A stretch of DNA of 64,000 bases from Cetorhinus maximus. Lineage: Eukaryota. The translations under genes were made by a program, and so were the position numbers. The stretch is taken from assembly GCF_964194155.1 (NCBI RefSeq), contig NW_027596908.1, positions 62,001-126,000 on the forward strand, written 5' to 3'. Below the pieces are notes generated by a model. That model ran no database searches and had not been told where the DNA came from. It saw only the letters and a program-made list of their open reading frames with translations. Positions 640 through 38,215 of this stretch are shown here, piece after piece (position 1 is the stretch's first letter; every line of letters starts with the position of its first letter).

Positions 640-1665
640 AATAATTATCCCTTAAATAATAATAATAATAAAAACAATCCCTTAAATAATAACAACCCCG
701 TAACTAATAATAATAACCCTTAAATAATAATAACCCCTTAACTAATAATAATAACCCTTAAATAATAATAACCCCTTAAATAATAATAATAACCCCTTAA
801 ATAATAATAATAATCCCTTAAATAATAATAACCCTTAAATAATAAAACCCCTTAAACAATAATAATAATCCCTTAAATAATAATAACCCCTTAACTAATA
901 ATAATAACCCTTAAATAATAATAACCCCTTAAATAATAATAATCCCTTAAATAATAATAACCCCTTAACTAATAATAATAATCCCTTAAATAATAAAACC
1001 CCTTAAATAATAAAACCCCTTAACTAATAATAATAATCCCTTAAATAATAAAACCCCTTAAATAATAATAACCCCTTAACTAATAATAATAATCCCTTAA
1101 ATAATAAAACCCCTTAAACAATAATAATAATCCCTTAAATAATAATAACCCCTTAAACAATAATAATAACCCCTTAACTAATAATAATAATCCCTTAAAT
1201 AATAATAATCCCTTAACTAATAATAATAATCCCTTAAATAATAATAACCCCTTAACTAATAATAATAATCCCTTAAATAATAAAACCCCTTAAACAATAA
1301 TAATAACCCCTTAACTAATAATAATAATCCCTTAAACAATAATAATAATCCCTTAAATAATAATAACCCCTTAAACAATAATAATAACCCCTTAACTAAT
1401 AATAATAATCCCTTAAATAATAATAATAATCCCTTAACTAATAATAATAATCCCTTAAATAATAATAACCCCTTAAACAATAATAATAACCCCTTAACTA
1501 ATAATAATCCCTTAAATAATAATAATAATCCCTTAAATAATAATAATAATCCCTTAACTAATAATAACCCCTTAAATAATAATAACCCCTTAAATAATAA
1601 TAACCCTTAAACAATAATAATAAACCTTTAACTAATAATAATAACCCCTTAAATAATAATAATAA
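640..1665. repeat. AT-rich minisatellite (AATAATAATAACCCCTTAA-like, ~19-22 bp unit)
   Basis: Direct tandem repeats; mirrored at 37722-37995. Confidence 0.95.
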
Positions 1666-1666
1666 T

Positions 1667-1735
1667 CTGAGTATCGCTGACAAAAGCGACATGTGGAAGT
1701 TTTCATCTTGCACTCATCAGGACACTTCACAAGAA
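1667..1735 (-). mobile_element. Penelope-type pLTR fragment with degenerate minimal hammerhead ribozyme
   Basis: Minus strand reads tgtc-CTGATGA-gtgcaagat-GAAA-acttc-caca (CTGATGA 1720-1714, GAAA 1704-1701); homologous to 37653-37721 and 26571-26632. Confidence 0.6.
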
Positions 1736-1968
1736 CCCCTCAAAAAGTAATTCCTTAACTCCTTCCCGAACTAACCCCTTAACAAATAATAATCCCTTAA
1801 TCCCCAAGAAACCCTTAATCCTAACAAATAACCCCCTCAAATAATAACCCCTTGACAAATAATAATCCTTTAACCCTAACAAGTGACCCCTTGAGAACTC
1901 TCCCCTTAACCCGAGCAACTAACCCAGTAGTGTAGTGCTGCCGGGGCACACCGGAGCGTCTCTCCATT

Positions 1969-2139
1969 ACCTTCTATTTAAAGGCTTTAATATTCACCGC
2001 TGGGTCCCAGTCACCAGCTCGTCGCCTTCATCTGCCCAATCGGCTCTGATATTTTTCAATGAAGCGCCACTTTTCCATTTACGCACCATCGGCCCTTCAG
2101 TCTGGAAACTGAAGCTAATGACCTAGGAGACAAGGCGGG
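1969..2139 (+). promoter_or_regulatory. TATA-like 37-bp motif followed by candidate non-coding exon
   Basis: accttcTATTTAAAggctttaatattcaccgctgggt at 1969-2005, also at 30716-30752(-) and 37384-37420(-); donor GG|GTGAGT at 2139/2140. Confidence 0.35.
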
Positions 2140-3154
2140 GTGAGTGAGAGGGGAATCAGTAAGTTAGCGGCTAGTCAGCATGTCAGCCGCTATGTTCCAC
2201 AGATTTTACCCGCGTCACCTCGCCCCACCAAAGTTAACCAGGCTCAGCACTTTAAAAGCCTTTCCAGCTGGCAGGGATTTCATTGTAAGATAACCAAGAG
2301 TTCCCAGCAGCATGGGACAACCCAAAGCAGCTTTTGTCCAGGCACATGGGCTGTGTTCTGATTGTGATGGCGGAGGGTCGTCAGATCCCGCATGAGGGTG
2401 AGTGTCATCTCCACCGTCAACCGTGTAACATTATCTCTACTTTCACAGGAAGATTCAGCCTGGTTTGGGTGGCTGGGACTAAGGGGAAGACATCGGGGCG
2501 CAATTTTCCCAGCCCGCTGGTGGCGGGCGTGACAGGTGAGCATGCGCGGAAAATATGGCGGGGCCGGCTTCACGACGGCGCCAAGGCAGCTCGCGATTGT
2601 CCGCTCAGCCCGCCAGCGGCGGGCCGCGTTCCCCGCCATCGGTCGGCGGGGAGCTCATTGTAATAGCATCTCATTTAAATGGCCACCTCGCCAGGCGCTG
2701 AACTCCCCGCCCGCCCCGCCCCGGATCGTCAGCCCACGTCGGCGGAATAGCACGTCGACGTGTTTCACAACGGGACGCAGGCAACGTGCACTTGGCGGCC
2801 TTCACTCTGGGGGAACTGAGGTGAGTGGACAGCAGTGTTCACTGCAGCTCTCCAGGGTCGCCCGCAGGCTTCAGGGGCACCGGCGGGGGGGCCTGGGTGA
2901 AGTGCTGCCCGGCCTCGGAGGTGACTGTACTCAGGGTGCGGGTATCAAGGGCAACTGCTGCCCTGGGCTGCATCCCACGCACAAGCAATCGAGGTGGATG
3001 GCAGGGTAGGCGAGGGAAGTGGCCACGCAGCAGGGACGCTCATACAAACTGACCATCCCTCTGCATCGGCCTCAGTGATACGACTGGGGTCGGGCTGCTA
3101 GCATTGCCACTACACCCCCCAGATCTTACACCCCACCGCCCCGGCACAGACTAT

Positions 3155-3840
3155 GGGTTGAAATTTCCCCCTGTCGGGGGGGATGTTGATGTGCAGGGGC
3201 ACACAGGCGTGCTTCCGATCGGCGCCCCCGATCGGAGGCACGGCGCCATTTTACGTGGGCGGGCCAATTCAGGCCCGCTCAGCGTGACGTCCACACGGAA
3301 GTGCCATACGCTCCTGTGAGGGCGGGGTGGGGGGGTTGAATCCCAAAATCAAGAGTGCGCTCTGCGCGCATGCGCGACAGAGCGCACTCATCTCCCTGAG
3401 GCTAAGTCCAGCCTCAGGCTCCAGATGTTAAAAACCTAAAATTAGAAATGTAAAATTTCCCTAAAATGTCACATGAGTTGAGAAATGTCCATAATTTTCA
3501 CAAAAAACTTTATTAAACTTTTTAAAAGTTACATGAAAACTCATCCCGCCCGTGGATGAGGTTTCATGTTTTTCTAGTTCTCGCCGGGGCTCCTGGCCTG
3601 CCCGCTGACTTTAAGGTTGGATGGGCAGGTCCTTTAATTACAGAATTGAGTCTGTCAATGGCCTCAATTGGCCGTTGGACAGGTCGGTGGGCGCACAGCT
3701 GATTTTGCTGCGCCCCCGCCTTCCTGAAAATTTAAACGGGACGCGGTGACGTCAGGAGCTACCCCCGGCGTCACCACGCATCATTTTACATGTCAGCGAG
3801 CGGGCCCCTCCTCTGCTCACCAACGTGTAAAATCCTACCC
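3155..3840. mobile_element. Harbinger-type MITE nested in the left-arm Harbinger element
   Basis: Imperfect TIRs GGGTTGAAATTT...AAAATCCTACCC; 3-bp TSD TAT at 3152-3154 and 3841-3843; empty site in right arm near 34900. Confidence 0.85.
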
Positions 3841-4335
3841 TATGAGTCCGCTCCCACGTTACTGGACCGTGGAGCAGTTGGATTGCACAGGTTGTACGGT
3901 CTCCTCGCCAACACTGGTCATGTAGCAGTCACTGCTGGAGGCACTCACAGCCCTTTGCAATCTCAGCATCCCAGTGTGGACCAGTGCCCCCCATGTCGCA
4001 GGTCAACAGGGCAGCCATGCAGCGCACTCATCTCTGGCCATCCGAGGGGTGACCAGCACTCTCCGGGAAGCATTAAGGGGCAGTCACACTGGGCCAGGAA
4101 AGGTGCTAAGTACAGCCATGATAAGCACATCCCTCTCTCTCATTCATGCTGCAGGAGGACCACGTCAGGATCACGGATCTTGGTGACCTAGCTGTGTGCC
4201 TGATGGCCGACAGAGACCATAGAAGATTGAGGAGAGAGACTGAGGCTCCTGGCTGCGCAAAGGTAGGAGCAGTGACCTCATGAAGAAGGGGCAGCAGGGG
4301 CTCCCACACACACTGCCCAGGAGTGACAGCGAGTT

Positions 4336-5172
4336 GTGGCTGCTCGGCGCCTAGTTACACCCAGGGTCTATAGATGCCGCCTGCCATTCCTGCAGATGAC
4401 TGAGAACCAGTGTCGCCGATCACTGCACATGTCTAGGGACCTGGTCGCTCACATCTGCCACTTGCTGCAGGTCTTGGCACCATCGCAAGCCTCCAGCCAC
4501 AAATGCATCCATGAGGTCACGGATGCCATCTTCTCGAGGGCACACAACTTTGTGCATTTCGCCTGGGACCGGGACAGCCAGAATGCAAGGGCCATTGGAT
4601 TCGCCCTGATCTCGGGATTCCCACAGGTTCAGGGTGTGATCGACTGCATCCATGTGGTGCTCAGGTCTCCGTCGCTACACATGTTGGACTACATCAACCG
4701 CAAGGGCTTCCATTCACTGAATGTGCAGCTGGTGTGCGAGCACCAGAAACGCATCCTACAGGTGTGCGCTCAGTTTCCAGGGAGTGTGCACGATGCCTAC
4801 ATCCTGAGTCACTCGCACATCCTTACAGTCTTCCCGGATCCACAGAGGCTACAGAGATGGCTCCTCAGGGACAAGGGCTACCCGCACGGGCGGTGGCTGA
4901 TGACACCCGTGCTGCAGCTGAAGAGGGTATCACGCATCATCATTGTCCACTACACCTTTTACAACCTGGCGCTGCAAGGGGGAGACGAGCTGGCTGAGGA
5001 GGAGCTGGAGGTCTCCTCGGATGAGGACAACGGCAGCGGGGATGGAGGTGAGGAGGTCCTCGGTGGTGATGATGACGGGGATGAGGCTCTCGCACTGGCT
5101 AGACGAGGCAGATGCTCGGGAGGTCCTCATAGCTGCCAGATTTGTAGAGGATGCAGTGAGGTGTACCCGTAG
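4336..5172 (+). pseudogene. Harbinger (HARBI1-like, DDE_Tnp_4) transposase pseudogene
   Basis: Motifs GFPQVQGVIDCIH, YINRKGFHSLNVQLVC, FPGSVHDAYIL, LRDKGYP, WLMTP; HTH segment and catalytic Glu region deleted. Confidence 0.85.
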
Positions 5173-6669
5173 ATCCTCACATCACAGTGTGAATGTTTGA
5201 CTCCGGTCTGGCTTATGGCAGCGCCAATACCCTCTGTGAGAATGCTCCTGTCATGGAGATGTAGTGGAGGCCCTAATAGTCGCTCGATCGCAGGAGGATG
5301 ATGACAACATGCAGTGAGGGCACTTCATGACTCTTCACGTAGCCTCTGTGAATGTCTGACTCCTGTCTGGCCGAGGGCAGCTCACTTGCGCTCCATGAAT
5401 CAGGCCCATCTCAAAGACGCAGCCATGAAACTTGAGACGCATTCGATGCTGTGTCTGCCTTCAGTACCTCGGCCCTTCATGAACTGGTGCACAGCATCAA
5501 TGGTCGCAGACACTGGTGCGATGGGGGCCAGCCCCTCCTTAAAGGTGCTGCGAGAACACAGAGAGAAAAGACGGAACTCTGTGGCGCCTGCCCACTGCAT
5601 TCTGGCAGCAATGACCAGCACCATTGAGGGGCAGGCATCAGTAATGTCTCCACGGAGTGTGAGGCTGGACCATCACTGTGGTCTGAAGGCTGCAGAGCAC
5701 AGGGAAGAGGCCCTGGACTGAGACACCTGCCTTTTATCTTGTGTGGAAAGGTTTCACATCCGAGTGACAAGAACACTGCTCATCAGAACAAGGAGCCTCA
5801 GGCAGGGAGACATTCTTAGGGGTTTATTGACAATATTGAACAGTATGTACAAGTGATCAACACCTGTGCCCAGGCTGTGCAACCACTTTTCCTTAACTGT
5901 CCAAACCTTGCTGCTAGGTCTTGGTCCTCCCCGGAACTCCACAGCGGAGGTGGAGGCAGCCTGCTGACTGTGACACCCTGTCTGTGATGACTTTGGCGGC
6001 CTCCCTGTGGAGAGCTGAGACTTGAAGGACCCCGGCCTGCTTTCGGGGTCCTGCTGTGTGGCAGTGGCATCCTCCTCAGCCTGTGGAGCTGGAGCTGTGG
6101 AGGTCACAGGAAGAGGGGACTCGAATGGGTTGGTCACTGAAGAGTGGTGTCCCTGGAGTGTGCACCTGCTGATCCTCCTTCCTATGGGTGCCCGAGGGCC
6201 CCTGGCTGACTCCATGAGGGGAAGGGGTAGCTGGAGTGAGATCGAGCTGCCCAGCACAGCTCTTGCGTACACGCTGTTGGAGGCCAACTATCGTGTCAGC
6301 AATAGAGTTAAGCCCGCACAGCAGTGCAGGAGCGACGTCCTGGACCAAGGTCTCCATGGCGGCCACCATCCTGCCAGTACTGACCTTGGTGCGTTGCAAT
6401 GCCGGCGCTATCACCTCAGACTGAAGACGGACGGGCTCCTCCATTGTGCCTTGCAATCTGAGGAGTGCAGCGGACATCCCTTCCTGATGTTCCCAAGTTT
6501 GTCTTTGCAGCTCCAGCAACTGTGACATGACCGAGTCCAGAGGCTCCTCATCTGACTCGGACTCAGGAATGTTCTGGCCTCCAGCACCTCCTCCGAGTGC
6601 CGGGGACCTGGTAAGTCCCTGCTTCCACCTGCTGTTGATCAGACTGTGCACTGTGCTCACCATGTGGAG

Positions 6670-7200
6670 TGTATTCACACCTGGAGCACTGTGGACAGTT
6701 CTGGTCTCCTTACTTAAGGAGGGATAGACTTGCATTGGAGACAGTTCAGAGAAGGTTCACTCGGCTGGTTCCTGGGATGAAGGGGGTTTGCCTTATGAGG
6801 TAAGGTTGAGCAGGTTGGGCCTGTGTCCATTGGAGTTTAGAAGAATGAGAGGCGATCTTATTGAAACATATCAGATTCTGAGGGGGCTGGACAGGGTGGG
6901 TGCGGAGAGGACGTTTCCCCTCATGGGGGAATCTAGAACGAGGGAGCACAGTTTCAGAATAAGGTGTCCCCCATTTCAGACTGAGACGAGTAGGAATTTC
7001 TACTCTCAGAGGGCCCTTACACTGTGGAATCCGCTACCCCAGGGAGCAGTGGATGCTGCGTTAGTCAGATATTTGATCTACAAGGGAGTCCAGGGTTATG
7101 GGGCCAGGCAGAAAAGTGGAGTTAAGGCCACAATCAGATCAGCCATGATCTTATTAAATGGGGGAGCAGGCACGAGGGGCTGAATGACTTCACGCTTCTC
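6670..7200 (+). mobile_element. CR1-type LINE 3' fragment
   Basis: YEVRLSRLGL-PLEFRRMRGDLIETYQILRGLDRV...ESRTR-H...LWNPLPQ, typical CR1 ORF2 C-terminus. Confidence 0.85.
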
Positions 7201-7369
7201 CTATTTCTTCTAATGTACTTGTATGTGGACTGTAGCTGGAAGTTTAAGGCTCTAGATTTAGGGTAAACAATCTAAAGGCTCATGGGTCCAAACCTCACGA
7301 CTGCTAGTATTTGTGGTGCTGTGATCTCCTTTTGGGTATGGACTCAATGGGCTGTTGGAAGGTATATGC

Positions 7370-8900
7370 TGAGGAAGCGCCGCACTGTCGGAGGGTCAGT
7401 GCTGAGGGAGCGCTGCACTGTCGGAGGGTCAGTACTGAGGGAGCGCTGCACTGTCGGAGGGTCAGTGCTAAGGGAGTGCCGCACTGTCGGAGGGTCAGTA
7501 CTGAGGGAGCGCCGCACTGTCGGAGGGTCAGTGTTGATGGAGCGCCGCACTGTCGGAGGGTCAGTGTTGATGGAGCGCCGCACTGTCGGAGGATCAGTAC
7601 TGAGGGAGCGCCGCACTGTCGGAGGGTCAGTGCTGAGGGAATACTGCACTGTTGGAGGGTCAGTGTTGAGGGAGTGCTGCACTGTCGGAGGGTCACTGTT
7701 GAGGGAGTGCTGTAGTGTCGGAGGGTCAGTGCTGAGGGAGCGCCGCACTGTCGGAGGGTCAGTGTTGAGGGAGTGCCGCACTGTTGGAGGGTCACTGTTG
7801 AGGGAGCACCGCACTGTCAGAGGGTCAGTGTTGAGGGAGCTCCGCATATCGGATGGTCTGTGCTGCGGTACCACCGCCCTGTTGGAAGGTCAGTACTGAG
7901 GGAGTGCTGCACTGTCGAAGGGTCAATGTTGAGAGAGTGCAGCACTGTCGGAGGGTCAGTGTTGAGGGAGTGCCGCACTGTCGGAGGGTCAGTGCTGAGG
8001 GAGCGCCGCACTGTCGGAGGGTCAGTGCTGAGGGAATACTGCACTGTTGGAGGGTCAGTGCTGAGGGAGTGCTGCACTGTCGGAGGGTCACTGTTGAGGG
8101 AGTGCTGTAGTGTCGGAGGGTCAGTGCTGAGGGAGCACCGCACTGTCGGAGGGTCAGTGTTGAGGGAGTGCCGCACTGTTGGAGGGTCACTGTTGAGGGA
8201 GCACCGCACTGTTGGAGGGTCACTGTTGAGGGAGCACCGCACTGTCAGAGGGTCAGTGTTGAGGGAGCTCCGCATATCGGATGGTCTGTGCTGCGGTACC
8301 ACCGCCCTGTTGGAGGGTCAGTACTGAGGGAGTGCTGCACTGTCGAAGGGTCAATGTTGAGAGAGTGCAGCACTGTCGGAGGGTCAGTGTTGAGGGAGTG
8401 CCGCACTGTCGGAGGGTCAGTGCAGAAGCAGTGCCGCACTGTCGGAGGGTCAGTGCTGAGGCAGTGCCGCACTGTCGGAGGGTCAGTGCTGAGGCAGTGC
8501 CGCACTGTCGGAGGGTCAGTGCTGAGGCAGTGCCGCACTGTCGGAGGGTCAGTGCTGAGGCAGTGCCGCACTGTCGGAGGGTCAGTGCTGAGGCAGTGCC
8601 GCACTGTCGGAGGGTCAGTGCTGAGGCAGTGCCGCACTGTCGGAGGGTCAGTGTTGAGGGAGTGCTGCACTGTCAGAGGGTCAGTACTGAGGGAGCGCTG
8701 CACTGTCGGAGGGTCAGTGTTGAGGGAGTGCCGCACTGTCAGTGGGTCAGTACTGAGGGAGTGCTGCACTGTCAGAGGGTCAGCACTGAGGGAGCGCTGC
8801 ACTGTCGGAGGGTCAGTGTTGAGGGAGTGCTGCACTGTCGGAGGGTCAGTGTTGAGGGAGTGCCGCACTGTCGGAGGTTCAGTGTTGAGGGAGTGCCGCA
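7370..8900. repeat. 33-bp minisatellite (gcactgtcggagggtcagtgctgagggagtgcc)
   Basis: 33-bp period; translates to [11 protein letters not shown] repeats; internal 428-bp block duplication (7853 vs 8281). Confidence 0.95.
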
Positions 8901-8949
8901 CTGAGAAAGAAATGCCTCCTTCCATCGATGCACCTCCTTCACACTCAAT

Positions 8950-9094
8950 ATGAGGAACATTGAAAACTGGCTTTTCGAATTGTTTCAGATAACCTTTAAG
9001 GATATAAAAGACGCAACTGATAAAATCAAAGAGATTGATGCCCTGACCAAGAGGATCATTGCTTTGGAAGAACAGGTGGCTAGTCTAAAGAAAT
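8950..9094 (+). CDS. Left-arm C1q-domain gene, coiled-coil exon (acceptor at 8989; in-frame ATG at 8950)
   Basis: TTTCAG|ATAACC acceptor; ITFKDIKDATDKIKEIDALTKRIIALEEQVASLKK; donor T|GTAAGT at 9094, phase 1 matches exon 12351. Use of ATG 8950 (MRNIENWLFELFQ) is inference. Confidence 0.7.
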
Positions 9095-9139
9095 GTAAGT
9101 GAGAACATACTCGATCTGGGCTTTATAATCTTTTTCTCC

Positions 9140-9760
9140 TTCTTAGTCACTTCCTCAGGATCAAGGAATGAATTGCTTTCACTTGAGTTTGGTTGGTTTT
9201 GAGCTGGTGATCTGCAGATTCTGCCCCGTGTGGGGTGGGTGGAGCTTCAAGGGTTGGGTAGATAGGTTGTTTGAGGGTTTGTGCACTCCCTCAGAGGCCT
9301 CGACTTTCGCTCTGCACGTTCCCAATGAAGCTTCTGTGATTGGTGCCTTCCCGAATGAGCTTTCTCCATTTTGGTCAGTCACAAGACAGGGACTCCCATG
9401 AGTCAGCAGGGATGTTTGACCTCTTCAGGGATGCTCTGAGGATAGCCCTCAAAGGTTTCTACTGTGCTCTTGGGAGCCTCCTGTCATGACTGAATTCTGA
9501 GTAAAGCAGTAGAGCTTTGATAGTCTGGTGTCAAGCATACGAACAACACAACCCTTCCAGCGGAGCTGGTCTGAGTGCTTTATCTCAATGGCTTGGGACA
9601 CGATGCTGCTGTTTGACCAGCTTTCTTGTCACCAGATTTGTAGGATCTTACGAAGAAGCAGCTGGTGGTATTTCTCCGCTGCTTTGAGTTGCCTGCTGTA
9701 GATCACCCAAACCTTTGAAGCCTATATGGGGGTCACTGCTGCCCAGTAAAGCACGAACAT
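9140..9760 (-). mobile_element. RTE-clade LINE 3' fragment, decayed
   Basis: Minus strand resembles the RTE C-terminal segment seen more clearly at 28231-28620 (YQAAVIPAL-Y-SEAW--YSRHLK); mirrored at 23215-23830. Confidence 0.6.
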
Positions 9761-9799
9761 AGTTGTCATAACCAATTAACACACGAGCCACAAAGTATC

Positions 9800-10430
9800 A
9801 AACAATGAGCGTCTCCAACAACAGACAATCTAACCATCACCCCTTGACATTCAATGGCATTACCATCACTGAATCCCCCACTATCAACATCCTGGGGGTT
9901 ACCCTTAACCAGAAACTGAACTGGACTAGCCATAGAAATACTGTGGCTACAAGAGCAGGTCAGAGGCTGGGAATCCTGCAATGAATAACTCACCCCCTAA
10001 CTCCCCAAAGCCTGTCCACAATCCACAAGACACAAGTCAGGAGTGCGAAGGAATACTCCCCACTTCCTAGATGAGTGCGGCTCCCACTCAAGAACAACAC
10101 AAGAAGGTCGACACCATCCAGAACAAAGCAGCCTGATTGGCACCACATCCGCAAACATTCACTCCCTCCACCACCGACGCACAGTAGCAGCAGTGTGTGT
10201 ACCATCTACAAGATGCGCTGCAGGAATTCACCAAGGCTGCTTCGACAGCACCTTCCAAACCCATGACCACTACCATCTAAAAGGACAAGGGCAGCACACA
10301 AATGGGAACACCACCACCTGAAAGTTCCCCTCCAAGTCACTCACCATCCTGACTTGGAAATATATCGGCTGTTCCTTCACTGTCGCTGGGCCTGAGGCAA
10401 TTCGAGGTAGATTATAAATGCTGACATTGC
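9800..10430 (+). mobile_element. CR1/L2-superfamily LINE 3' fragment
   Basis: Same family as 61660-62290 ([20 protein letters not shown]; [12 protein letters not shown]). Confidence 0.75.
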
Positions 10431-10594
10431 CAGATAAAGGGCGTCAATCATCATGTAATTTTAGAAGGGAAATGGAAAAACACAAGACACATTAGATTGA
10501 ACATGAGAAATGTGATATATTGTGGGAGGAAGAATGAGGAGAGGTAACTTCAGCTGAATAATGTAATTTTAAACCAAGTGCAAGAACAGCAATC

Positions 10595-12290
10595 TTAACA
10601 TTTTCACCCTAATTTTCAAACATATCCATGGCCTCCTTCCCCTCCCTATCTCTATAACCTCCCCCCAGCCCCAACAACCCTCCCTATCTCGGTTACCTCC
10701 TCCAGCCCCAACGACCCTCCCTATCTCGGTTACCTCCTCCAGCCCCAACAACCCTCCCTCCCTAACTTGGTTACCTCCTCCAGCCCCAACAACCCTCCCT
10801 ATCTCTGTAACCTCCTCCAGCCCCTACAACTTCCTAATATCTGTAACCTCTTCCCACTCCTAGAAACCTCCCTACCTCTGTAGACTCCTCCAGCTCCTAC
10901 AACCCTCCCTATCTCTGTAGCCTCCTCCAGCTCCTACACCCTCTCTATCTCTGTAACCTCCTCCAGCCCCTAAACCCTCCCTATCTCTGAAACCTCCTCC
11001 ATCCCCTATAACCCTCCCTATCTCTGTAAGCTCCGCCAGCCACCACAACTCTCCCTATCTCTGAAACCTCCTCCAGCCCCTACAACCCTCCCTATCTCTG
11101 TAACCTCCTCCAGTCCCTACAACCCACCCTATCTCTGAAACCTCCTCCAGCCCCCACAACCCTCCCTATCTCTGTAACCTCCTCCAGCCCCAACAACCCA
11201 CCCTATCTCTGAAACCTCCTCCAGCCCCCACAACCCTCCCTATCTCTGAAACCTCCTCCAGCCCCCACAACCCTCCCTATCTCTGTAACCTCCTCCAGCC
11301 CCCACAGCCCTCCCTATCTCTGTAACCTCCTCCAGCCCCCACAACCCTCCCTATCTCTGTAACCTCCTCCAGCCCCCACAACCCTCCCTATCTCTGTAAC
11401 CTCCTCCAGCCCCCACAACCCTCCCTATCTCTGTAACCTCCTCCAGCCCCCACAACCCTCCCTATCTCTGTAACCTCCTCCAGCCCCCACAACTCTCCCT
11501 ATTTCTGTAACCTCCTCCAGCCCCGACAACCCTCCCTATCTCTGTAACCTCCTCCAGCCCCGACAACCCTCCCTATCTCTGTAACCTCCTCCAGCCCCTA
11601 CAACCCTCCCTATCTCTGAAACCTCCTCCAGCCCCGACAACCCTCCCTATCTCTGTAACCTCCTCCAGCACCTACAACCCTCCCTATCTCTGAAACCTCC
11701 TCCAGCCCCTACAACCCACCCTATCTCTGAAACCTCCTCCAGCCCCCACAACCCTCCCTATCTCTGTAACCTCCTCCAGCCCCTACAACCCTCCCTATCT
11801 CTGAAACCTCCTCCAGCCCCGACAACCCTCCCTATCTCTGTAACCTCCTCCAGCCCCTACAACCCTCCCTATCTCTGAAACCTCCTCCAGCCCCCACAAC
11901 CCTCCCTATCTCTGTAAGTTCCACCAGCCCCCACAGCCCACACTATTTCCATAACCTCCTCAGCCCCTACATCCCTCCGAGATCTCTGCGCTCCTCCCAA
12001 TTCCGGCCTCTTGACCATCCCCCGATTCCCCATCGCTCCACCGTTGGCGGCCGTGCCTTCAGGTGCCTGGGGCCCTGAGCTGTGGAATTCCCTCCCTAAA
12101 CCTCTCCGCCTCTCTGTCTCTTCACGCCTTTAAGACACTTCTCAAATCAGACCTCTTTGACCAAGCTTTTGGTCACTTGTCCTGACATCTCCTTATCTGC
12201 TTTAGGGCCACGTTTTGTGTTAGAACACTCCTGTGAAGCCCCTCTGGATATTTTGTCATTCTGAAGGTGCTATATAAATGGCAATTCTTG
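10595..12290 (+). mobile_element. L2-type LINE 3' end containing expanded 37-bp minisatellite (~10640-11970)
   Basis: Flanks read as HGL-PPYL-NLLQP...PPRSLRSS and [16 protein letters not shown]; unit ccctatctctgtaacctcctccagcccctacaaccct, 37-bp period. Confidence 0.8.
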
Positions 12291-12350
12291 TTGTTCTTAT
12301 TGGCTCCTGCCTGTTTGCTCCTCACTCACCACCGTAACCTTCATTTCTAG

Positions 12351-17265: not shown

Positions 17266-17277
17266 TTTATCTGATCT

Positions 17278-27100: not shown

Positions 27101-27289
27101 TTTTGTTTCAGCGATTCTCCAGCTTTTGGAGCTGAGTTACTGTCTCCTTCTGTCTCTCTGGAAACAGGGGTGTTGTCTCTGAGTTGCTGCTTACATAGCA
27201 GGGAGGAAGAAGGAGGGAACGGAAATCAGAGCAAAATCGACAGCAGAAATGAAACCAGTGAAGCAGAACAAGTAAAATAGAATCAGTGA

Positions 27290-28229: not shown

Positions 28230-28635
28230 GTCACTGGATTTGGAGGATCATGCATGGCCACTGCTGGTGGTCATTCTCCAGTGATTTGAGATGCCTGCTG
28301 TAGGTCATCCAAGCCTCCGACACATATGGTAGTGCAGGGATCACTGCTGCCTGGTAAATCATCACCTTAATCTCATGTTTGAACTCTAGGTCCTCAGATA
28401 GACTTTTTTTAGTCAGCTGAAGACTCAGATGGCAGATTGGAGGCGATGTTGAATTTTGTTGTCTGTGTCTGCATTCATTTGGAAGAGGATCCCAATTTAG
28501 GAAACTTAGGTCCACATTTTCCATGATTCTACCATTGATCAGAATCGGTGGGTGAAGGTGTGGTGCTGGAGGTGGTTTAAAGAGGACCTTAGCCTTCTGG
28601 GTGTTTGGTGAAAGGCCCATTTTCTCATATGCTTT
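28230..28635 (-). mobile_element. RTE-clade LINE fragment
   Basis: MGLSPNTQKAKVLF...IKVMIYQAAVIPALPYVSEAWMTYSRHLKSLENDHQ. Confidence 0.75.
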
Positions 28636-29029
28636 GGGATTAGTTGTTGGGGATTAAGGGGTTAGTTGTTAAGGAGTTAGTTGTTAAGTGGTTAGTTGTT
28701 AGAGTTAAGGTGAGAGTTGTTAAGGGGATAGTTGTTATGTAGTTAGTTCAGTGGTATTGTGCCAAATTTTGATAATGCATTGGCTGTATCATTTCTAAAT
28801 CTATTACATTGATTATCTATGTATTAACCATTTGAGTCCTCAAAAGTCAGTAAAGCTATGCTTTTTAAGTGAAAAATATTAGTCCTTATAGGTATTTTAT
28901 TTCAAACCATGCTGCATTTTGAATCACTAGTCTTTAGCATAGCTAGAATTTCATTATGCAATGGTTTAATGATTTAATTCAAGCTGATTAAAAACATGAA
29001 TTACAGAAAACTTCTTTTACTTCTGACAG

Positions 29030-29960
29030 GGGGATGGTATATAGAGGGACCACTGCTTTTCTTGATATATGTTAATAACCTAGACCTGGGTGCACAGGGC
29101 ACAATTTCAAAATTGGAAGATGATGCAAGACTTGAAAGTATTGTGAACTGTGAGGAGGATAGTGATAGACTTCAAGAAGATTTACACAGGCTGGTGTGTG
29201 GAATGGGCAGACACGTGGCAGATGAAATTTAATGGAGGGAAGTGTGAAGTGGTCAGAGGAACAAGGAAAGGTGTCATAAAGTAAAGGGTACAATTCTGAA
29301 GAGAATGCAGGAGCAGAGGGACCTGGGTGTATATGTGAATAAATCATTGAAGGTGGCAGGGCAGGTTGTGGAAGCAGTTAATAAATTATACTGAATCCTG
29401 GGCTTTATAAATAGGGGCACAGAGTACAAAATCAAGTAAGTTATGAACTTTCCTAAAACACTGGTTCAACCTCAATGAGAAGGATGTGAAAGGTTTAGAA
29501 AAGGTGCAGAAAACATTTACAAGAATGGTTCCGAGGATGACTTCAGTTACATGGATAGATTGGCGAAGCTGGGGCCATTCTCCTTTGCCAGGAGAAGGTT
29601 GAGAGGAGATTTGTTAGACGCATTCAAAAATCATGAAGAGCCTGGACAGAATAAATGGGGAGAAACTTTTCTCATCGGCAGATCGAGAACCCTGAGGTGA
29701 TTAACCACAGAACCAGAGGCGACGTGAGGAAAGGTGGTTTGGATCTGGAATGCACTCCCTGAGCATGTGGTGGAGACAGGTTCAATTGTGGTTTGTGGTT
29801 TTCAAAATGAAACTGGATAGTTATCGGAAGAGAAGATTTTACGAGGCTACGTGGAAAAGGTGGAAGAGTGGAACTAGCTAAGTGGCAGCTGCGGAGAGCT
29901 GACAGAGAGACAATGCGCTGAATGCCCTCCTTCTGTGCTGTAACCATTCTATGATTCGAG
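29030..29960 (+). mobile_element. CR1-type LINE RT and 3' fragment, decayed
   Basis: GPLLFLIYVNNLDLG-QGTISK-EDD--L---VNCEEDSDRLQEDL (RT region with decayed FADD). Confidence 0.85.
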
Positions 29961-30580
29961 TACAGGTATATTCAAGGAACTTGAAAAATACAGGGGGGAA
30001 AAGAAGCTGAAGGTTACCCTGATAGTGTGATGAAGAAGGGTGGGAGGATGCTTGTGCGGAACATCCAATATCACTTCCAATATGCCATCTGAGCCTTCAG
30101 CTGACTGAGGAAAGGTCTATTTCTTTCCATGCTGTAAGTTCCATGTAAAGTTGCCAGCAGGGAATACAAACGCCACACTGCATTTCACACCCTCAGGCCA
30201 TGACAGCCAAGGAATTAATGTTCAGTAGGCAAATGCAGCAGGGTGGCTTGGTACATTGATGCTGCTTTAGACCCTAGGATCTTGAGATTCAAAGACTCTG
30301 AAATGCCTGTTTATGGGATGTGGTGTGCAAGGAGTTGTAAGGTCTGTATGATTTTTACAGTTAGGGAGTTGTACAAGAGGGTTATTGCTGTTGCTGTACA
30401 TTGACTCAGAGACATTCAGCAGTAGCAGTGTGAAGCCCAGGACCTTGGGCAGGGCCTTCACTCCGCCACCTCCAAACCTCCCCAGGCTTCGGGTTCATAG
30501 CCACACCGCAAGCTGGGACATTCCGGTCAACTCTTGCCTTCTGGCCTGAACTCAAACAGGAACTCGTGGCCATACCTACC

Positions 30581-30752
30581 CTTGTGCCTCACATAAAAAT
30601 GCAGACAGAAATCATTCGATATGATCCCCATGCCAGCCGTCTCTGTATCACATGTTAGGCAGCCATATAATGGTTGCAATATAATGGATGGCCAACCAGC
30701 AAAGCAGAGTTTACCACCCAGCAGTGAATATTAAAGCCTTTAAATAGAAGGT
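30581..30752 (-). promoter_or_regulatory. Candidate TATA promoter and non-coding first exon of the right-arm C1q gene
   Basis: TATTTAAA (30746-30739) in the 37-bp motif shared with 1969-2005; donor AAGG|GTAGGT at ~30581; correct strand, 3.4 kb upstream of ATG exon. Confidence 0.35.
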
Positions 30753-30854
30753 GCTGGAGCAATGCTTCGGTACGCTCCAGCAGCCCTGCACCCTTAGTTC
30801 CAGCCCCACTCCAGAGACTTGAGAACAAAAATATGGCCTCGCATCCCAGTGAAG

Positions 30855-31285
30855 TACCGAGGGAGCGCCGCACCGTCGGAGAGGCAGAACCAAGGGAGTG
30901 CCACACCGTCGGAGGGGCAGGACCGAGGGAGCGCCACACTGTCGGAGGGGCAGGACCGAGGGAGCGCCACACCGTCGGAGGGGCAGGACCGAGGGAGCGC
31001 CACACTGTCGGAGGGGCAGGACCGATGGAGCAACATTAAAGCAAGGATGTAAAAGACCCTACATCCACAATTTTAGTGGACAGCAGGGAGTGCCCCCAAG
31101 ATCCACGCCAATATTTCTCCTTCAATAATTAAGAGAGATTTTCTGCCCTTTATCTCATTGCTGTTTGTGGGAGCACAATTGTTCACAATTTTGCTGTTTT
31201 GTTTTGAATGCATCTTAAAAGTACTTCATTCCCTTTGGACCAACCTGAGCTGCTGAAAGCTACCACATAAATGTAAATATTTCCT
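30855..31285 (+). mobile_element. Decayed Deu-type SINE with 33-bp repeat variant at its 5' part
   Basis: Five 33-bp units, then sequence similar to the SINE body at 57490-57730 (gatgtaaaaga-ccc, gagcaggg, atctcattgctgtttgtgggag). Confidence 0.55.
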
Positions 31286-31673
31286 TTAAGAGGCAGAGAA
31301 CACAATTACACCCCACAGTCATCAGGACTGTTCACTCCTCACCATTGATAACATAATGGGCAGAATTTTCCCAGATTTGCAATAAGTGCGGTAGCGGGCG
31401 GGTAAAACGATGTTTTACCTGCCAGCCACAATGACAGGTTTTCACCAGGGTAAGTCACTCTTTTCATCACTCACACACTCACAAACCCATCACACGTCCA
31501 CAGGGCCCTCACTCACTGCCAGTTCAAGGGACATCACCATTCGCTCTCTCACACACACCGTCATTGTCCTCATCCCGTCCATGGGACCACTCACCACCCA
31601 CACAGGACGGGCACATCTATCATCTGGCCCGGCAGGCATCCTGCTTACACTTTATCAATCTCTATCTATACAG

Positions 31674-32900
31674 GACAAGCTGGCACACGGCAAGACGGAA
31701 AGGTCACAGACTGGTGCTGGAATGCCCGAAATCAAGGTCCTCACAGACTTTTAAAACGGAGCCATCCAGCTGGCCGGCGATGGCTGGGACCGGTCCTGTG
31801 CTGATAGTGAGGTCGGCGCTGCCCTACCAAGTGAGGGTCCAGCAGCGCAACATCCATCAGACAACCGTGCCGTGAGTGATGTGTCCTGTTTCACAGGCCA
31901 CTGCCATGGACTAATTATGTCCTCTTGCTTTCACAGGCACATCTGCCAAACAGCCAACAGAGTCCATGACCCAGGGCCTCCAATCAAGCTCCGAAGAAAC
32001 CTCGGAAGGGGAATCTGGAGGCACCCTCCCTGAAGTCCTATCACAGTGCTCACCCACACCCTCCACCAGCGCAGAGACACACACCTCGGTGGGGCCTAGC
32101 TTTAGAATAGGCACAGGATCACAACCCGGTGAGCACAGTGCACAGTCTGATCAACAGCAGGTGGAAGGAGGGACTTACCAGGTTCCTGGCACTCGGAGGA
32201 GGTGCTGGAGGCCAGAACATTCCTGAGTCCGAGTCAGATGAGGAGCCTCTGGACTCGGTCATGTCACAGTTGCTGGAGCTGCAAAGACAAACTCGGGAAC
32301 ATCAGGAAGGGATGTCCGCTGCACTCCTCAGATTACAAGGCACAATGGAGGAGTCCATCCGTCTTCAGTCTGAGGTGATAGCGCCGGCATTGCAACGCAC
32401 CAAGGTCAGTACTGGCAGGATGGTGGCCGCCATGGAGACCTTGGTCCAGGACGTCGCTCCTGCACTGCTGCGTGGGCTTAACTCTATTGCTGACACGATA
32501 GTTGGCCTCCAACAGCCTGTACGCAAGAGCTGTGCTGGGCAGCTCAATCTCACTCCAGCTACCCCTTCCCCTCATGGAGTCAGCCAGGGGCCTTCGGGCA
32601 CCCATAGGAAGGAGGATCAGCAGGTGCACACTCCAGGGACACCACTCTTCAGTGACCAACCCATTCGAGTCCCCTCTTCCTGTGACCTCCACAGCTCCAG
32701 CTCCACAGGCTGAGGAGGATGCCACTGCCACACAGCAGGACCCTGAAAGCAGGCCGGGGCCCTTCAAGTCTCAGCTCTCCACAGGGAGGCCGCCAAAGTC
32801 ATCACAGACAGGGTGTCACAGTCAGCAGGCTGCCTCCACCTCCGCTGTGGAGTTCCGGGGAGGACCAAGACCTAGCAGCAAGGTTTGGACAGTTAAGGAA
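31674..32900 (+). pseudogene. Harbinger second ORF (Myb/SANT partner protein, NAIF1-like) remnant
   Basis: Exon-like DKLAHGKTERSQTGAGMPEIKVLTDF* with stop; coiled-coil-like QLLELQRQTREHQEGMSAALLRLQ; convergent to the transposase as in Harbingers. Confidence 0.5.
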
Positions 32901-33615
32901 AAGTGGTTGCACAGCCTGGGCACAGGTGTTGATCACTTGTACATACTGTTCAATATTGTCAATAAACCCCTAAGAATGTCTCCCTGCCTGAGGCTCCTTG
33001 TTCTGATGAGCAGTGTTCTTGTCACTCGGATGTGAAACCTTTCCACACAAGATAAAAGGCAGGTGTCTCAGTCCAGGGCCTCTTCCCTGTGCTCTGCAGC
33101 CTTCAGACCACAGTGATGGTCCAGCCTCACACTCCGTGGAGACATTACTGATGCCTGCCCCTCAATGGTGCTGGTCATTGCTGCCAGAATGCAGTGGGCA
33201 GGCGCCACAGAGTTCCGTCTTTCTCTCTGTGTTCTCGCAGCACCTTTAAGGAGGGGCTGGCCCCCATCGCACCAGTGTCTGCGACCATTGATGCTGTGCA
33301 CCAGTTCATGAAGGGCCGAGGTACTGAAGGCAGACACAGCATCGAATGCGTCTCAAGTTTCATGGCTGCGTCTTTGAGATGGGCCTGATCATGGAGCGCA
33401 AGTGAGCTGCCCTCGGCCAGACAGGAGTCAGACATTCACAGAGGCTACGTGAAGAGTCATGAAGTGCCCTCACTGCATGTTGTCATCATCCTCCTGCGAT
33501 CGAGCGACTATTAGGGCCTCCACTACATCTCCATGACAGGAGCATTCTCACAGAGGGTATTGGCGCTGCCATAAGCCAGACCGGAGTCAAACGTTCACAA
33601 CTGTGATGTGAGGAT

Positions 33616-34409
33616 CTACGGGTACACCTCACTGCATCCTCTACAAATCTGGCAGCTATGAGGACCTCCCGAGCATCTGCCTCGTCTAGCCAGTGCGAGA
33701 GCCTCATCCCCGTCATCATCACCACCGAGGACCTCCTCACCTCCATCCCCGCTGCCGTTGTCCTCATTCGAGGAGACCTCCAGCACCTCCTCAGCCAGCT
33801 CGTCTCCCCCTTGCAGCGCCAGGTTGTAAAGGGTGTAGTGGACAATGATGATGCGTGATACCCTCTTCATTATAACGTTGCTCCGCTGCAGTCTGAGGCT
33901 GCTGCACGGGTGTCTGCGAGTAGCCCTTGTCCCTGAGGAGCCATCTCTGTAGCCTCTGTGGATCCGGGAGACCTGAGCACCACATGGATGCAGTCGATCA
34001 CACCCTGAACCTGTGGGAATCCCGAGATCAGGGCGAATCCAATGGCCCTTGCATTCTGGCTGTCCCGGTCCCAGGCGAAATACACAAAGTTGTGTGCCCT
34101 CGAGAAGATGGCATCCATGACCTCATGGAAGCATTTGTGAATGGAGGCTTGTGATATCCCACAGAGGTCACCTGTGGAGCCCTGAAAGGAGCCACTGGCA
34201 TAGAAATTGAGCACCGCAGTCACTTTCACAGCCGCAGGCAGTGGATGCCCTCCATGTCCGCTTGGTGCCAAAACCTACAGCAGGTGGCAGATGTGAGCGA
34301 CCAGGTCCCTAGACATGTGCAGTCATCGGCGACACTGGTTCTCAGTCAAATGCATGAATGGCAGGCGGCATCTATAGACCTTGGGTGTAACTAGGCGCCG
34401 AGCAGCCAC
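33616..34409 (-). pseudogene. Harbinger transposase pseudogene
   Basis: LPAAVKVTAVLNFYASGSFQGSTGDLCGISQASIHKC (HTH) and GVIDCIH retained; NRKG...GSVHD segment deleted; frameshifted. Confidence 0.85.
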
Positions 34410-35869
34410 AACTCGCTGTCACTCCTGGGCAGTGTGTGTGGGAGCCCCTGCTGCCCCTTCTTCATGAGGTCACTGCTCCTACCTTTGCGCAGCCAGGAGC
34501 CTCAGTCTCTCTCCTCAATCTTCTATGGTCTCTGTCGGCCATCAGGCACACAGCTAGGTCACCAAGATCCGTGATCCTGACGTGGTCCACCTGCAGCATG
34601 AATGAGAGAGAGGGATGTGCTTATCATGGCTGTACTTAGCACCTTTCCTGGCCCAGTGTGACTGCCCCTTAATGCTTCCCGGAGAGTGCTGGTCACCCCT
34701 CGGATGGCCAGGGGTGAGTGCGCTGCATGGCTGCCCTGTTGACCTGCGACATGGGGGGCACTGGTCCACACTGGGATGCTGAGATTGCAAAGGGCTGTGA
34801 GTGCCTCCAGCAGTGACTGCTACATGACCAGTGTTGGCGAGGAGACCGTACAACCTGTGCAATCCAACTGCTCCGCCGTCCAGTAACGTGAGAGCGGACT
34901 CGAAGTCTGTGCTGGGGGCGGTGGGGGGTAAGATCTGGGGGGTTTGGTGGCACATTGGTGCCTCCACATTGCTTGTGTGGGTGGACAGGCGAGCAGCCCG
35001 ACCCCCAGTCATATCACTGAGGCCGATGCAGAGGGATGGTCAGTTTGTACGAGTGTCCCTGCTGCGCGGCCACTTCCCTCGCCTACCCTGCCATCCACCT
35101 CGATTGCTTGTGCGTGGGATGCAGCCCAGGGCAGCAGTTGCCCCTTGATACCCGCACCCCGAGTACAGTCACCTCCGAGGCTGGGGCAGCACTTCACCCA
35201 GGCCCTCCCCGCCCCACCCGGTGCCCCTAAAGTCTGCGAGCGACCCTGGAGAGCTGCAGTGAACACTGCTGTCCACTCACCTCAGTTCCCCCAGAGTGAA
35301 GGCCGCCAAGTGCACGTTGCCTGCGTCCCGTTGTGAAACACGTCGAAGTGCTTTCCCGCCGACGTGGGCTGACGATCCGGGGCGGGGCGGGCGGGGAGTT
35401 CAGCGCCTGGCGAGGTGGCCATTTAATGAGATTCTATTACAATGAGCTCCCCGCCGACCGATGGCGGGGAACGCGGCCCACCACAGGCGGGCTGAGTGGA
35501 CAATCGCGAGCTGCCTTGGCGCCGTCGTGAAGCCGGCCCCGCCATATTTTCCGCGCATGCTCACCTGTCACGCCCGCCACCAGCGGGCTGGGAAAATTGC
35601 ACCCCGATGTCTTCCCCTTAGTCCCAGCCACCCAAACCAGGCTGAATCTTCCTGTGAAAGTAGAGATAATGTTACACGGTTGACGGTGGAGATGACACTC
35701 ACCCTCATGCGGGATCTGACGACCTTCCGCCAGCACAATCAGAACACAGCCCATGTGCCTGGACAAAAGCTGCTTTGGGTTGTCCATGCTGCTGGGAACT
35801 CTTGGTTATCTTACAATGAAATCCCTGCCAGCTGGAAAGGCTTTTAAAGTGCTGAGTCTGGTTAACTTT

Positions 35870-37143
35870 TTTTTTGCAAAAATATACTTTATTCATAAAA
35901 TATCTTCAACCACATTCCAAACCATTCCAAAAACACCATTTCAAGGGTACAATCCGGTTCAACTTTTACAAAATGTTTCACCAGGTGCATCAGTACAAAC
36001 AATATTACAATCGTTTACAGCCTTTCATTTTGAGCTGTACAGCCCGAGGTGATTTAAACAGTTCCCAGTCCCTCGGTGCACTGTGGCAGAAAGGTCTTAG
36101 ACAGCGACCCTTCCCCATTGCGCCTTTGCGGCAGCTGCCCCAAGCTTTAGTGCGTCCCTCAGCACGTAGTCCTGGACTTTGGATTGTGCCAGTCCGCAAC
36201 ACTCGGTCGGGGACAACTCTTTGCGCTGGAAGACCAACAAGTTTCGGGCAGACCAAAGCGTGTCTTTCACCGAGTTGATGATCCTCCAGCTGCAGTTGAT
36301 GTTTGTCTCGGTGTGTGTCCCTGGGAACAGCCCGTAGAGCACAGAGTCCTGTGTCACAGAACTGCTCGGGATGAACCTCGACAGAAACCACTGCATCTCT
36401 CTCCAGACCTTCTTTGCAAAGGCACAATCCACAAGGAGGTGAACAACGGTCTCTTCCCCACCACAGCCACCTCGAGGGCAACGTGCAGAGGGGGTGAGAC
36501 TCCTGACGTGTAGGAAGGATCTGATGGGGAGGACCTTTCTCACCACCAGCCAAGCCACGTCTTGGTGCTTGTTGGAAAGTTCTGGCGATGAGGCATTCTG
36601 CCAAATGACTTTGACAGTCTGCTCGTCCTGGGAGAACCACCTTTTTTTTTTGCAAAAATATACTTTATTCATAAAATATCTTCAATCACATTCCAAACCA
36701 TTTCAAAAACACAATTACAAGGGTACAATCCGGTTATACTTTTACAAATTGTATCACCAGGTGCATCAGTACAAACAATATTACAATCATTTACAGCCTT
36801 TCATTTTGAGCTGTACAGCCCGAGGGGATTTAAACAGTTCCCAGCCCCTCGGTGCGCTGTGGCAGAAAGGTCTTAGACAGTGACCCTTCCCCATTGCGCC
36901 TTTGCGGCAGCTGCCCCAAGCTTTAGTGCGTCCCTCAGCACGTAGTCCTGGACTTTGGATTGTGCCAGTCTGCAACACTCGGTCGGGGACAACTCTTTGC
37001 GCTGGAAGACCAACAAGTTTCGGGCAGACCAAAGCGCGTCTTTCACCGAGTTGATGATCCTCCAGCTGCAGTTGATGTTTGTCTCGGTGTGTGTCCCTGG
37101 GAACAGCCCGTAGAGCACAGAGTCCTGTGTCACAGAACTGCTC
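35870..37143 (-). mobile_element. Two tandem 5'-truncated Tx1/L1-clade LINE copies (35870-36641, 36642-37143)
   Basis: zf-RVT-type RCPRGGCGGEETVVHLLVDCAFAKKVW and LWSARNLLVFQ; each copy has AATAAA and an A tail; 16-bp TSD gagtctggttaacttt at 35854-35869 and 37144-37159. Confidence 0.9.
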
Positions 37144-37652
37144 GAGTCTGGTTAACTTTGGTGGTGCGAGGTGACGCGGGTAAAATCTGTGGAACATAGC
37201 GGCTAACATGCTGACTAGCCGCTAACTTACTGATTCCCCTCTCACTCACCCTGCCTTGTCTCCTAGGTCATTAGCTTCAGTTTCCAGACTGAAGGGCCGA
37301 TGGTGCGTAAATGGAAAAGTGGCGCGTCATTGAAAAATATCAGAGCCGATTGGGCAGATGAAGGCGACGAGCTGGTGACTGGGACCCAGCGGTGATTATT
37401 AAAGCCTTTAAATAGAAGGTAATGGAGAGACGCTCCGGTGTGCCCCGGCAGCACTACACTACTGGGTTAGTTGCTCGGGTTAAGGGGAGAGTTCTCAACG
37501 GGTCATTTGTTAGGGTTAAAGGATTATTATTTGTCAAGGGGTTATTATTTAAGGGGGTTATTTGTTAGGATTAAGGGTTTCTTGGGGTCAAGGGATTATT
37601 ATTTGTTAAGGGGTTAGTTCGGGAAGGAGTTAAGGAATTACTTTTTGAGGGG

Positions 37653-37721
37653 TTCTTGTGAAGTGTCCTGATGAGTGCAAGATGAAAACTTCCACATGTC
37701 GCTTTTGTCAGCGATACTCAG
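37653..37721 (+). mobile_element. Penelope-type pLTR fragment with degenerate hammerhead (mirror of 1667-1735)
   Basis: CTGATGA 37668-37674, GAAA 37684-37687. Confidence 0.6.
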
Positions 37722-38215
37722 ATTATTATTATTATTATTTAAGGGGTTATTGTTTATTAGGGGGTTATAATTTAAGAGGTTTTAATCATTATTTAAGGGG
37801 TTATTATTATTTAAGGGGTTATTATTCATATTTAAGGGATTATTATTATTATTGAAGGGGTTATTATTATTTAAGGGGTTATTATTCGTATTTAAGGGAT
37901 TATTATTATTGAAGGGGTTATTATTATTTACGGGATTAATATTATTATTTAAGGGATTATTATTATTTAAGGGATTATTATTATTTAAGGGGTTATTGAG
38001 GGAGTGCCGCACTGTCGCGGGGACGGTCCTGAGGGAGTGCCGCACTGTCGCGGGGACGGTCCTGAGGGAGTGCCGCACTGTCGCGGGGACGGTCCTGAGG
38101 GAGTGCCGCACTGTCGCGGGGACGGTCCTGAGGGAGTGCCGCACTGTCGCAGGGACGGTTCTGAGGGAGTGCCGCACTGTCGCAGGGACAGTACTGAGGG
38201 TGTGTAGCACAGTCG
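37722..38215. repeat. AT-rich minisatellite (37722-37995) abutting a 33-bp minisatellite variant (37996-38215)
   Basis: ttattattatttaagggg units, then gagggagtgccgcactgtcgcggggacggtcct units. Confidence 0.9.

Follow-up and report, generated by a model that had tools for sequence, protein, structure and literature searches.

Inverted duplication with reciprocal gene loss at a C1q–HAUS5 locus of Cetorhinus maximus

The window studied here is a stretch of 64,000 nucleotides from Cetorhinus maximus (bases 62,001–126,000 of contig C850, an unplaced contig of 130,612 bp in a genome of 3.99 Gb). It holds two inverted arms around a small spacer, which carry a C1q-domain gene and the 5′ half of HAUS5 and lie next to an FCGBP-like gene (Table 1). 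A preliminary description of this DNA had presented the arms as a palindrome of the type known from mammalian Y chromosomes, in which gene conversion between the arms maintains a pair of C1q genes. In its workings, however, the locus is like an inverted duplication that accompanies an inversion and has undergone reciprocal loss, and it fails two tests that define a palindrome, i.e. arm identity and the presence of intact genes in both arms. Arm identity is 98.1% (below 99%), the C1q copy in the left arm is truncated, and HAUS5 in the right arm is reduced to one orphan exon. We consider it probable that the structure originated as a local inverted duplication of ~32 kb, through one duplication-plus-inversion, with reciprocal deletions and occasional short-tract conversion.

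Arms and junctions of the inverted repeat

Unique 20-mers chain in inverted order from position 1,652 in the left arm (37,736 in the right arm) to position 15,567 in the left arm (17,972 in the right arm). This chain bears out the two colinear inverted arms and the spacer of ~2.4 kb in the preliminary description. The extent given there (640–37,995) does cover an inverted repeat, but the arms are longer and reach to 39,521 on the right and to 10.3 kb left of the window. In the fetched flanks, contig positions 51,704–53,2xx match window positions 37,998–39,521 at ~99% in inverted orientation. In total, the inverted duplication spans ~32 kb, and with arms of at least 8 kb around a non-duplicated spacer it has the dimensions of a palindrome. 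No third copy of any arm segment was found within the contig.

Arrays of a 51-bp satellite flank the right arm in opposite orientation (39,579–43,606 and 16,607–17,248). The larger array has a 1.64-kb higher-order repeat, and contig depths point to a family that is apparently abundant genome-wide. At the right outer end, positions 39,509–39,587 hold a short repeated motif and a unit that is 74–86% like the 35-bp satellite on the 3′ side of C1q, in left-arm orientation.

Without a single difference, one X3 contig (15,461–15,603; X1 and X3 are sequencing runs) spans the junction between the left arm and the spacer, and contigs of X1 and X3 (17,801–18,078) bridge the one between the right arm and the spacer. 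The outer flanks consist of different genes, FBL and FCGBP. Junction contigs and non-homologous flanks thus support the earlier statement that the inverted duplication is real rather than a mirrored artefact. Together with the reciprocal gene loss, they led us to reject a mirrored-read artefact or a mis-join of haplotypes. At position 18,013, X1 has the assembled base and X3 the base of the left arm and the outgroup; this is likely a heterozygous site in the right arm.

The polarity of the four arm ends could be assigned from genes and repeats. The left outer end is ancestral, because exons of HAUS5 continue past it. A local blast search detected no old repeat crossing this end, and the sole repeat that a search of the genome brought up lies further left, so that its polarity rests on HAUS5. 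The right inner end is ancestral as well, because its junction is crossed by 13 other copies of an old repeat and by contigs of another organism (organism B) in runs of two studies (17,801–18,152). In contrast, the left inner end is novel, because the junction cuts an element resembling a long terminal repeat (LTR). Compared with five fetched copies, it trims 70–100 bp of the 5′ end, and the missing piece has no match elsewhere in the contig. Among the pieces listed, no contig of organism B crosses this left junction, an absence to which we attach no weight. By exclusion, the right outer junction is novel too. Hence, both arms combine an ancestral with a novel junction, and the sides are swapped between them, as is characteristic of an inversion-associated duplication. 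The left arm likely occupies the ancestral position.

Reciprocal deletions, probable gene conversion and proposed history

Outside the minisatellite arrays, which were left out of the count, 176 of the 9,257 aligned columns differ between the arms. This corresponds to an identity of 98.1%, with blocks ranging from 95.1% to 99.1%. Satellite unit counts also differ between the arms (46.6 vs 18.1, 36.2 vs 15.2 and 50.7 vs 67.1). The arms of Y palindromes diverge by 0.021–0.028% (PMC3403216), and the divergence of 1.9% at our locus is ~70–90 times as large.

Private insertions and deletions had been noted in both arms before. The indels exist, but most of the supposed insertions are deletions in the other arm: of the seven that are large, a single one is clearly a new insertion, five are deletions, and one is an old miniature inverted-repeat transposable element (MITE) that was more likely lost than gained. 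The clear insertion, a long interspersed nuclear element (LINE) in the right arm, is young, because it has a 16-bp target duplication and 38 of the 39 other copies scored are 97–98% identical. It is built of two tandem 3′ ends, and over the full 1.28 kb there is a match of 95% at one further locus (C19). The 680-bp MITE is, judged from its divergence from other copies, likely older than the duplication and would have been lost from the right arm rather than gained on the left.

The 6.8-kb difference between the arms is a deletion in the left arm, because there is no target duplication, the junction shows microhomology, and 39 of 39 other Harbinger copies scored continue without interruption through the break at 32,128, like the right arm. 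An insertion of this stretch into the right arm was ruled out by the same lack of a target duplication and by its ancestral content. Exons 1 and 2 of C1q have one match each in the contig, both inside this right-only stretch. Conversely, HAUS5 has at least six of its 5′ exons in ~10 kb of sequence confined to the left arm. Other Harbinger copies identify a 108-bp piece as a left-arm deletion and a 164-bp piece as a right-arm deletion, while a 324-bp piece belongs to a repeat that extends into shared sequence and is therefore a right-arm deletion. As a result of the complementary deletions, HAUS5 is whole in the left arm and the C1q gene in the right arm.

Mismatches between the arms are unevenly distributed. 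Their counts in 46 windows of 200 bp were overdispersed (mean 3.8, variance 11.6, p=1.6e-11). One identical tract of 832 bp (5,195–6,028) lies in a dead Harbinger transposon, and another of 615 bp (12,064–12,678) covers most of exon 4 of C1q and is followed by four differences in 15 bp (12,679–12,693). Runs of 832 and 615 bp were reached in 0 of 2,000 shuffles (p<0.001), also without the two most diverged LINE blocks, and long identical runs were significant within blocks as well (p=0.0003 and 0.003). In both X1 and X3, position 15,242 is the only one of nine diagnostic substitutions at which a left-type contig shows the right-arm base; at the mirror site, organism B agrees with the left base of the assembly. 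The allele at 15,242 fits a short right-to-left conversion, at one site, that segregates in the sampled animal. Patchy conversion between the arms is thus likely present but weak, far too weak to keep both copies whole. Of the conversion proposed earlier as the force maintaining the genes, some is borne out by the overdispersion and the long tracts, but the maintenance of a gene pair is not. Many of the right-arm changes in the Harbinger element (2,497–6,660 vs 32,129–35,602) are C/G to T/A, and the left copy lies near the CpG island of HAUS5.

We propose the following history of the locus. The ancestral order would have been FBL – HAUS5(–) – C1q(+) – spacer sequence reversed – FCGBP(–). As the polarity of the junctions suggests, paired chromatids that broke in a staggered manner, or template switching in two steps, may then have placed an inverted copy of the segment with the 5′ part of HAUS5 and C1q, together with the 2.4-kb spacer, beside the original. 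In the simplest version, P-[A..F]-s'-Q would have changed into P-[A..F]-s-[F'..A']-Q, i.e. an inversion with one breakpoint region duplicated. Subsequently, the left arm would have lost the 6.8 kb with the start of C1q and the right arm the ~10 kb with the start of HAUS5; the losses themselves are observed. With the sole complete copy of one gene on each arm, neither arm would be dispensable, and as a net result the strand of C1q would be flipped. Conversion between the arms, which has statistical support, would have remained patchy and did not restore the large deletions.

The arms diverge by 2.7% in the inner block, whereas organism B contigs differ from the right arm and spacer by ~5% (18 of 348 and 14 of 326 bases). 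As far as sequence divergence indicates, the split from organism B is therefore likely older than the duplication. Arm and spacer contigs of organism B are alike in depth (46.9 vs 40–44 and 10.6 vs 15.7–17.3), where depth does not stand for copy number, and each of the C1q and HAUS5 protein clusters has one white-shark member. A single-copy C1q/HAUS5 segment in the relative fits these data. Dating was kept relative; the rate of 7e-10 per generation of the epaulette shark (PMC10587355) was not used for absolute dating, since generation times are not transferable.

The C1q-domain gene, its headless copy and neighbouring genes

The arms had been described as carrying a convergent pair of C1q genes. 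The gC1q exons (PF00386) are indeed convergent (12,352–12,754 on the plus strand vs 21,334–21,737 on the minus strand), but they belong to one full gene and one copy without exons 1 and 2. The right-arm gene has four exons with GT-AG introns, encoding a hydrophobic leader, a short stalk and a gC1q domain. Its protein is identical to the white-shark orthologue P0024 at 176 of 201 positions. The leader has a peak 9-residue hydropathy of 2.64 (2.29–2.52 in the orthologues), the gC1q domain matches PF00386, and there is no collagen repeat. With a leader, no collagen repeat and a C-terminal gC1q domain, the right copy is predicted from its sequence to be a secreted collagen-less gC1q protein. Neither copy is complement C1q proper, as the collagen region is absent.

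The gC1q exon shares 63–72% identity with 14 other chondrichthyan matches. Among 30 genome matches, two are near-identical, both on this contig, and the next best reaches 49%. This 49%-identical gC1q paralogue lies on contig C27 (L003, 1,483–1,932), and several other sharks also have two such genes. No canonical poly-A signal was found within 2.2–2.8 kb past either C1q stop codon (12,755–15,035 and 21,333–18,498). Read-through from the C1q genes across the spacer would yield a long hairpin RNA.

In the left copy, the start codon, the signal-peptide exon and the upstream region are gone along with exons 1 and 2, and there is no hydrophobic leader. A left-specific ATG occurs at 8,950, in the intron, 39 bp upstream of exon 3 and in frame, where the right arm has ACG. 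The NCBI model P0002 starts from this ATG, and its N-terminus is intron sequence with a hydropathy of 1.42. The N-termini of the models P0001 and P0002 are non-homologous (window 8,950 and 25,499–25,488), and exons 1 and 2 of the right copy are unannotated. Both public protein models carry wrong N-termini; the true leader exons are those at 27,100–27,083 and 26,068–25,994.

The shared C1q exons differ at seven bases (six replacements and one silent change), which is too few for a test of nonsynonymous versus synonymous rates (dN/dS). Four of the six amino-acid differences are left-derived, and two of these lie in columns where all 15 other sequences in the alignment have I/L or T/A. Two changes are right-derived and are either conservative or in a variable column. 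All three replacements in exon 4 fall in a variable stretch before the last strand, which aligns to a loop of C1q, adiponectin and cerebellin. Special selection on this cluster of differences was not established, as two non-coding clusters are equally dense. Most likely, the left copy is a 5′-truncated pseudogene.

The presence of the 5′ half of HAUS5 within the arms had been overlooked in the preliminary description. Exons of this essential spindle gene were placed by tblastn with P0031 and P0030 (PF14817). The gene extends leftward past the window and the arm, to contig position 33,296, and is intact on the left only. In window positions 1–2,000 the observed/expected ratio of CpG is 1.08. 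Exons of fibrillarin (FBL) lie on the minus strand, left of the window. The FCGBP-like neighbour noted earlier is confirmed as a VWD-C8-TIL gene on the minus strand that ends at 45,731, outside the duplication. It has direct intronic duplications of ~85% identity (55,189–56,200 vs 57,411–58,440, and 61,624–62,214 vs 62,861–63,440), consistent with the exon-unit repeats of the gene. The position of FBL beside FCGBP in the present orientation presumably matches human 19q13. The main text of one shark sex-chromosome paper has 0 mentions of HAUS5 and FCGBP.

Table 1. Features of the inverted duplication and its surroundings (window positions)
Feature	Position	Strand	Remarks
HAUS5 first coding exon	398..620 (coding 398–463, white-shark model)	-	CpG-rich stretch, left arm only
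Left arm, window part	633..15566	+	full arm from contig 51,704 (window -10,296), length 25.9 kb
Decayed Harbinger-type DNA transposon (DDE_Tnp_4)	2497..6661	+	left-arm deletion cuts element at 6,661
MITE-like element	3155..3841	.	680 bp, left arm only; 78–82% to 39 other copies
Junction of 6.8-kb left-arm deletion	6659..6663	+	3-bp microhomology ACC; C1q exons 1–2 and upstream region removed
Left C1q copy, exon 3	8989..9094	+	heptad-like stalk
Left C1q copy, exon 4	12352..12754	+	gC1q domain (PF00386), open frame
Spacer	15567..17971	.	2.4 kb, made up of an LTR-like piece, an AG-rich tract, a 51-bp satellite and an old repeat
Solo LTR-like element	15567..16337	+	5′ 70–100 bp absent exactly at left-arm junction
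Right arm	17972..39521	-	21.6 kb; inner junction ancestral, outer junction novel by exclusion
Complete C1q-domain gene	21334..27100	-	exons 27,100–27,083, 26,068–25,994, 23,984–23,879, 21,737–21,334; 200 amino acids
6.8 kb kept in right arm only	25352..32128	-	C1q exons 1–2, upstream region, end of Harbinger element
Young LINE insertion	35869..37159	-	1,290 bp, right arm only; zf-RVT, poly-A, 16-bp target duplication
Junction of ~10-kb right-arm deletion	37997..37998	.	fusion of a 33-bp with an AT-rich satellite; loss of at least six HAUS5 5′ exons
Orphan duplicated HAUS5 exon	38329..38415	+	right arm, sole HAUS5 exon kept there
FCGBP-like gene	45731..62705	-	repeated VWD-C8-TIL exons; 3′ end 6.2 kb outside right arm

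Alternative explanations and significance

It is very improbable that the structure is an assembly artefact in which two haplotypes or paralogous contigs were joined head to head. An unplaced, minisatellite-rich contig of 130,612 bp may raise this suspicion, as may the depth of the left-junction contig (52.5, vs 67.8 and 81.9 for other X3 spacer contigs). However, both inner junctions are present in read-derived contigs, left-allele contigs also exist, the outer flanks hold non-homologous genes, and reciprocal losses would make each haplotype null for HAUS5 or C1q. The same end state could also have had a more complex origin, through a trimmed inverted triplication (origin-dependent inverted-repeat amplification, ODIRA, or duplication–triplication/inverted–duplication, DUP-TRP/INV-DUP) or through deletions during template switching. 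Such an origin would suit the 35-bp-satellite-like unit and the short repeated motif at the right outer junction and the missing 5′ piece of the LTR, and a model for it is given in PMC10766186. We regard it as unlikely, since the contig holds no third copy of an arm segment and two novel junctions suffice.

Some observations weigh against the history of one duplication-plus-inversion with reciprocal deletions. Its ancestral order is inferred and not observed in an outgroup assembly, and the unit resembling the 35-bp satellite, immediately beyond the right outer end (39,527–39,587), hints at a more complex event. Runs X1 and X3 come from one sample, possibly the source of the assembly, and are not independent; the junction contigs are among the pieces listed (32 of ~172,000); and the depth comparisons are affected because contig depth is not copy number. 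Read-derived support is confined to the inner junctions, while the right outer junction and both large deletion junctions come from the assembly alone. NCBI annotates both C1q copies as protein-coding. Derived changes in the Harbinger element are spread unequally (14 on the left and 35 on the right, with 8 unclear; p=0.004), and the identical tracts could partly stem from rate variation or polishing.

The remaining alternatives concern the left C1q copy. Ongoing conversion that keeps two working C1q genes, as in a palindrome of the Y type, is hardly credible. In its favour are the two long identical tracts (832 bp, and 615 bp over most of exon 4), the exon-3/4 frames that are open in both copies and the two proteins listed by NCBI. 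Yet the left copy lacks exons 1 and 2 and has changes at the I/L or T/A columns of 15 of 15 sequences, the arms differ by 1.9% vs 0.02–0.03% on the Y, and kilobase indels persist. It is also rather unlikely that the headless copy is in use, be it as a silent conversion donor, through a crossover swap in intron 2/3, or as a leaderless protein expressed from the CpG promoter of HAUS5. With a crossover, exchange in the shared intron 2/3 would invert the centre and bring the left copy under the right promoter; a leaderless protein would be translated from the intronic ATG at 8,950. Use of the left copy would agree with the geometry of one promoter and two cassettes in inverted orientation, with the location of three of three exon-4 amino-acid differences in one orthologue-variable loop between identical tracts of 615 and 199 bp, and with the A at –3 of the left-specific in-frame ATG. 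However, clusters of four differences in 15 bp also occur at two non-coding places, the change from ACG to ATG is an ordinary CpG change, and the left-derived changes resemble relaxed constraint.

A doubtful, more specific version is that the locked-in inverted repeat acts as a one-promoter, two-cassette switch of the variable loop of a single secreted gC1q protein. The loop would speculatively alternate between D-S-G-I-T and V-S-G-N-I, with the centre flipped by intron crossover or the left loop copied by conversion. If true, a shark would possess a switch, germline or somatic, that diversifies a protein other than an immunoglobulin.

In duplication–degeneration–complementation and reciprocal gene loss, complementary losses make both copies indispensable. 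The locus differs from this scheme in that two distinct genes, on the two arms of one inverted repeat, complement each other, and not the sub-functions of one gene. It resembles the palindromes of mammalian X and Y chromosomes in its gene-bearing inverted arms of tens of kb, its small spacer and its arm-to-arm conversion. In contrast to our locus, where the arms are 1.9% diverged and large deletions remove exons, the arms of X palindromes are up to 99.99% identical, and the X and Y palindromes hold intact gene families in each arm and have a shortage of large indels near genes (PMC3403216, PMC8327919). The inversion-associated inverted duplications of Drosophila, which arise from staggered breaks (PMC1885836), similarly combine an inversion with an inverted duplicate of the sequence at one breakpoint, and the duplicates decay. 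There, however, duplicates of at most 1.9 kb flank long inversions, whereas here ~32 kb is duplicated around a spacer of 2.4 kb, and the 5′ ends of two genes have been lost in a reciprocal way. Locally inverted copy-number variants (CNVs) in humans, attributed to ODIRA or FoSTeS (the stalling of forks with template switching; PMC10766186), share the local inverted copy, the microhomology junctions and the secondary deletions. These CNVs are recent and often pathogenic, whereas our locus is aged (1.9% divergence, a later LINE) and has no triplicated segment.

The inverted pseudogene donors of avian immunoglobulin loci (bioRxiv 10.64898/2026.09.05.749481) also combine conversion with an inverted duplicate pseudogene close to a functional gene of immune type, but our locus has a single donor rather than an array, and somatic conversion in it would be conjectural. 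In cartilaginous fishes, secreted gC1q proteins without a collagen region (NCBI 'C1q-like protein 3/4' and 'CTRP3-like') have the same leader, short stalk and gC1q domain. The right copy shows no difference from them, whereas the left copy lacks the leader.

Among the papers listed in the literature on C1q, precerebellin-like proteins, HAUS5, FCGBP, palindromes, gene conversion and inverted duplications (supplements not included), none dealt with this shark locus. The locus gives a junction-by-junction view of a long inverted repeat, normally unstable with a small spacer, that persists without Y-like homogenisation. It also illustrates a small-scale route to the strand flip of one gene. The shark lineage has been described as slow in chromosome change (PMC11406177). 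For the study of how fast conversion proceeds in sharks, and over what tract lengths, the locus offers a natural system.

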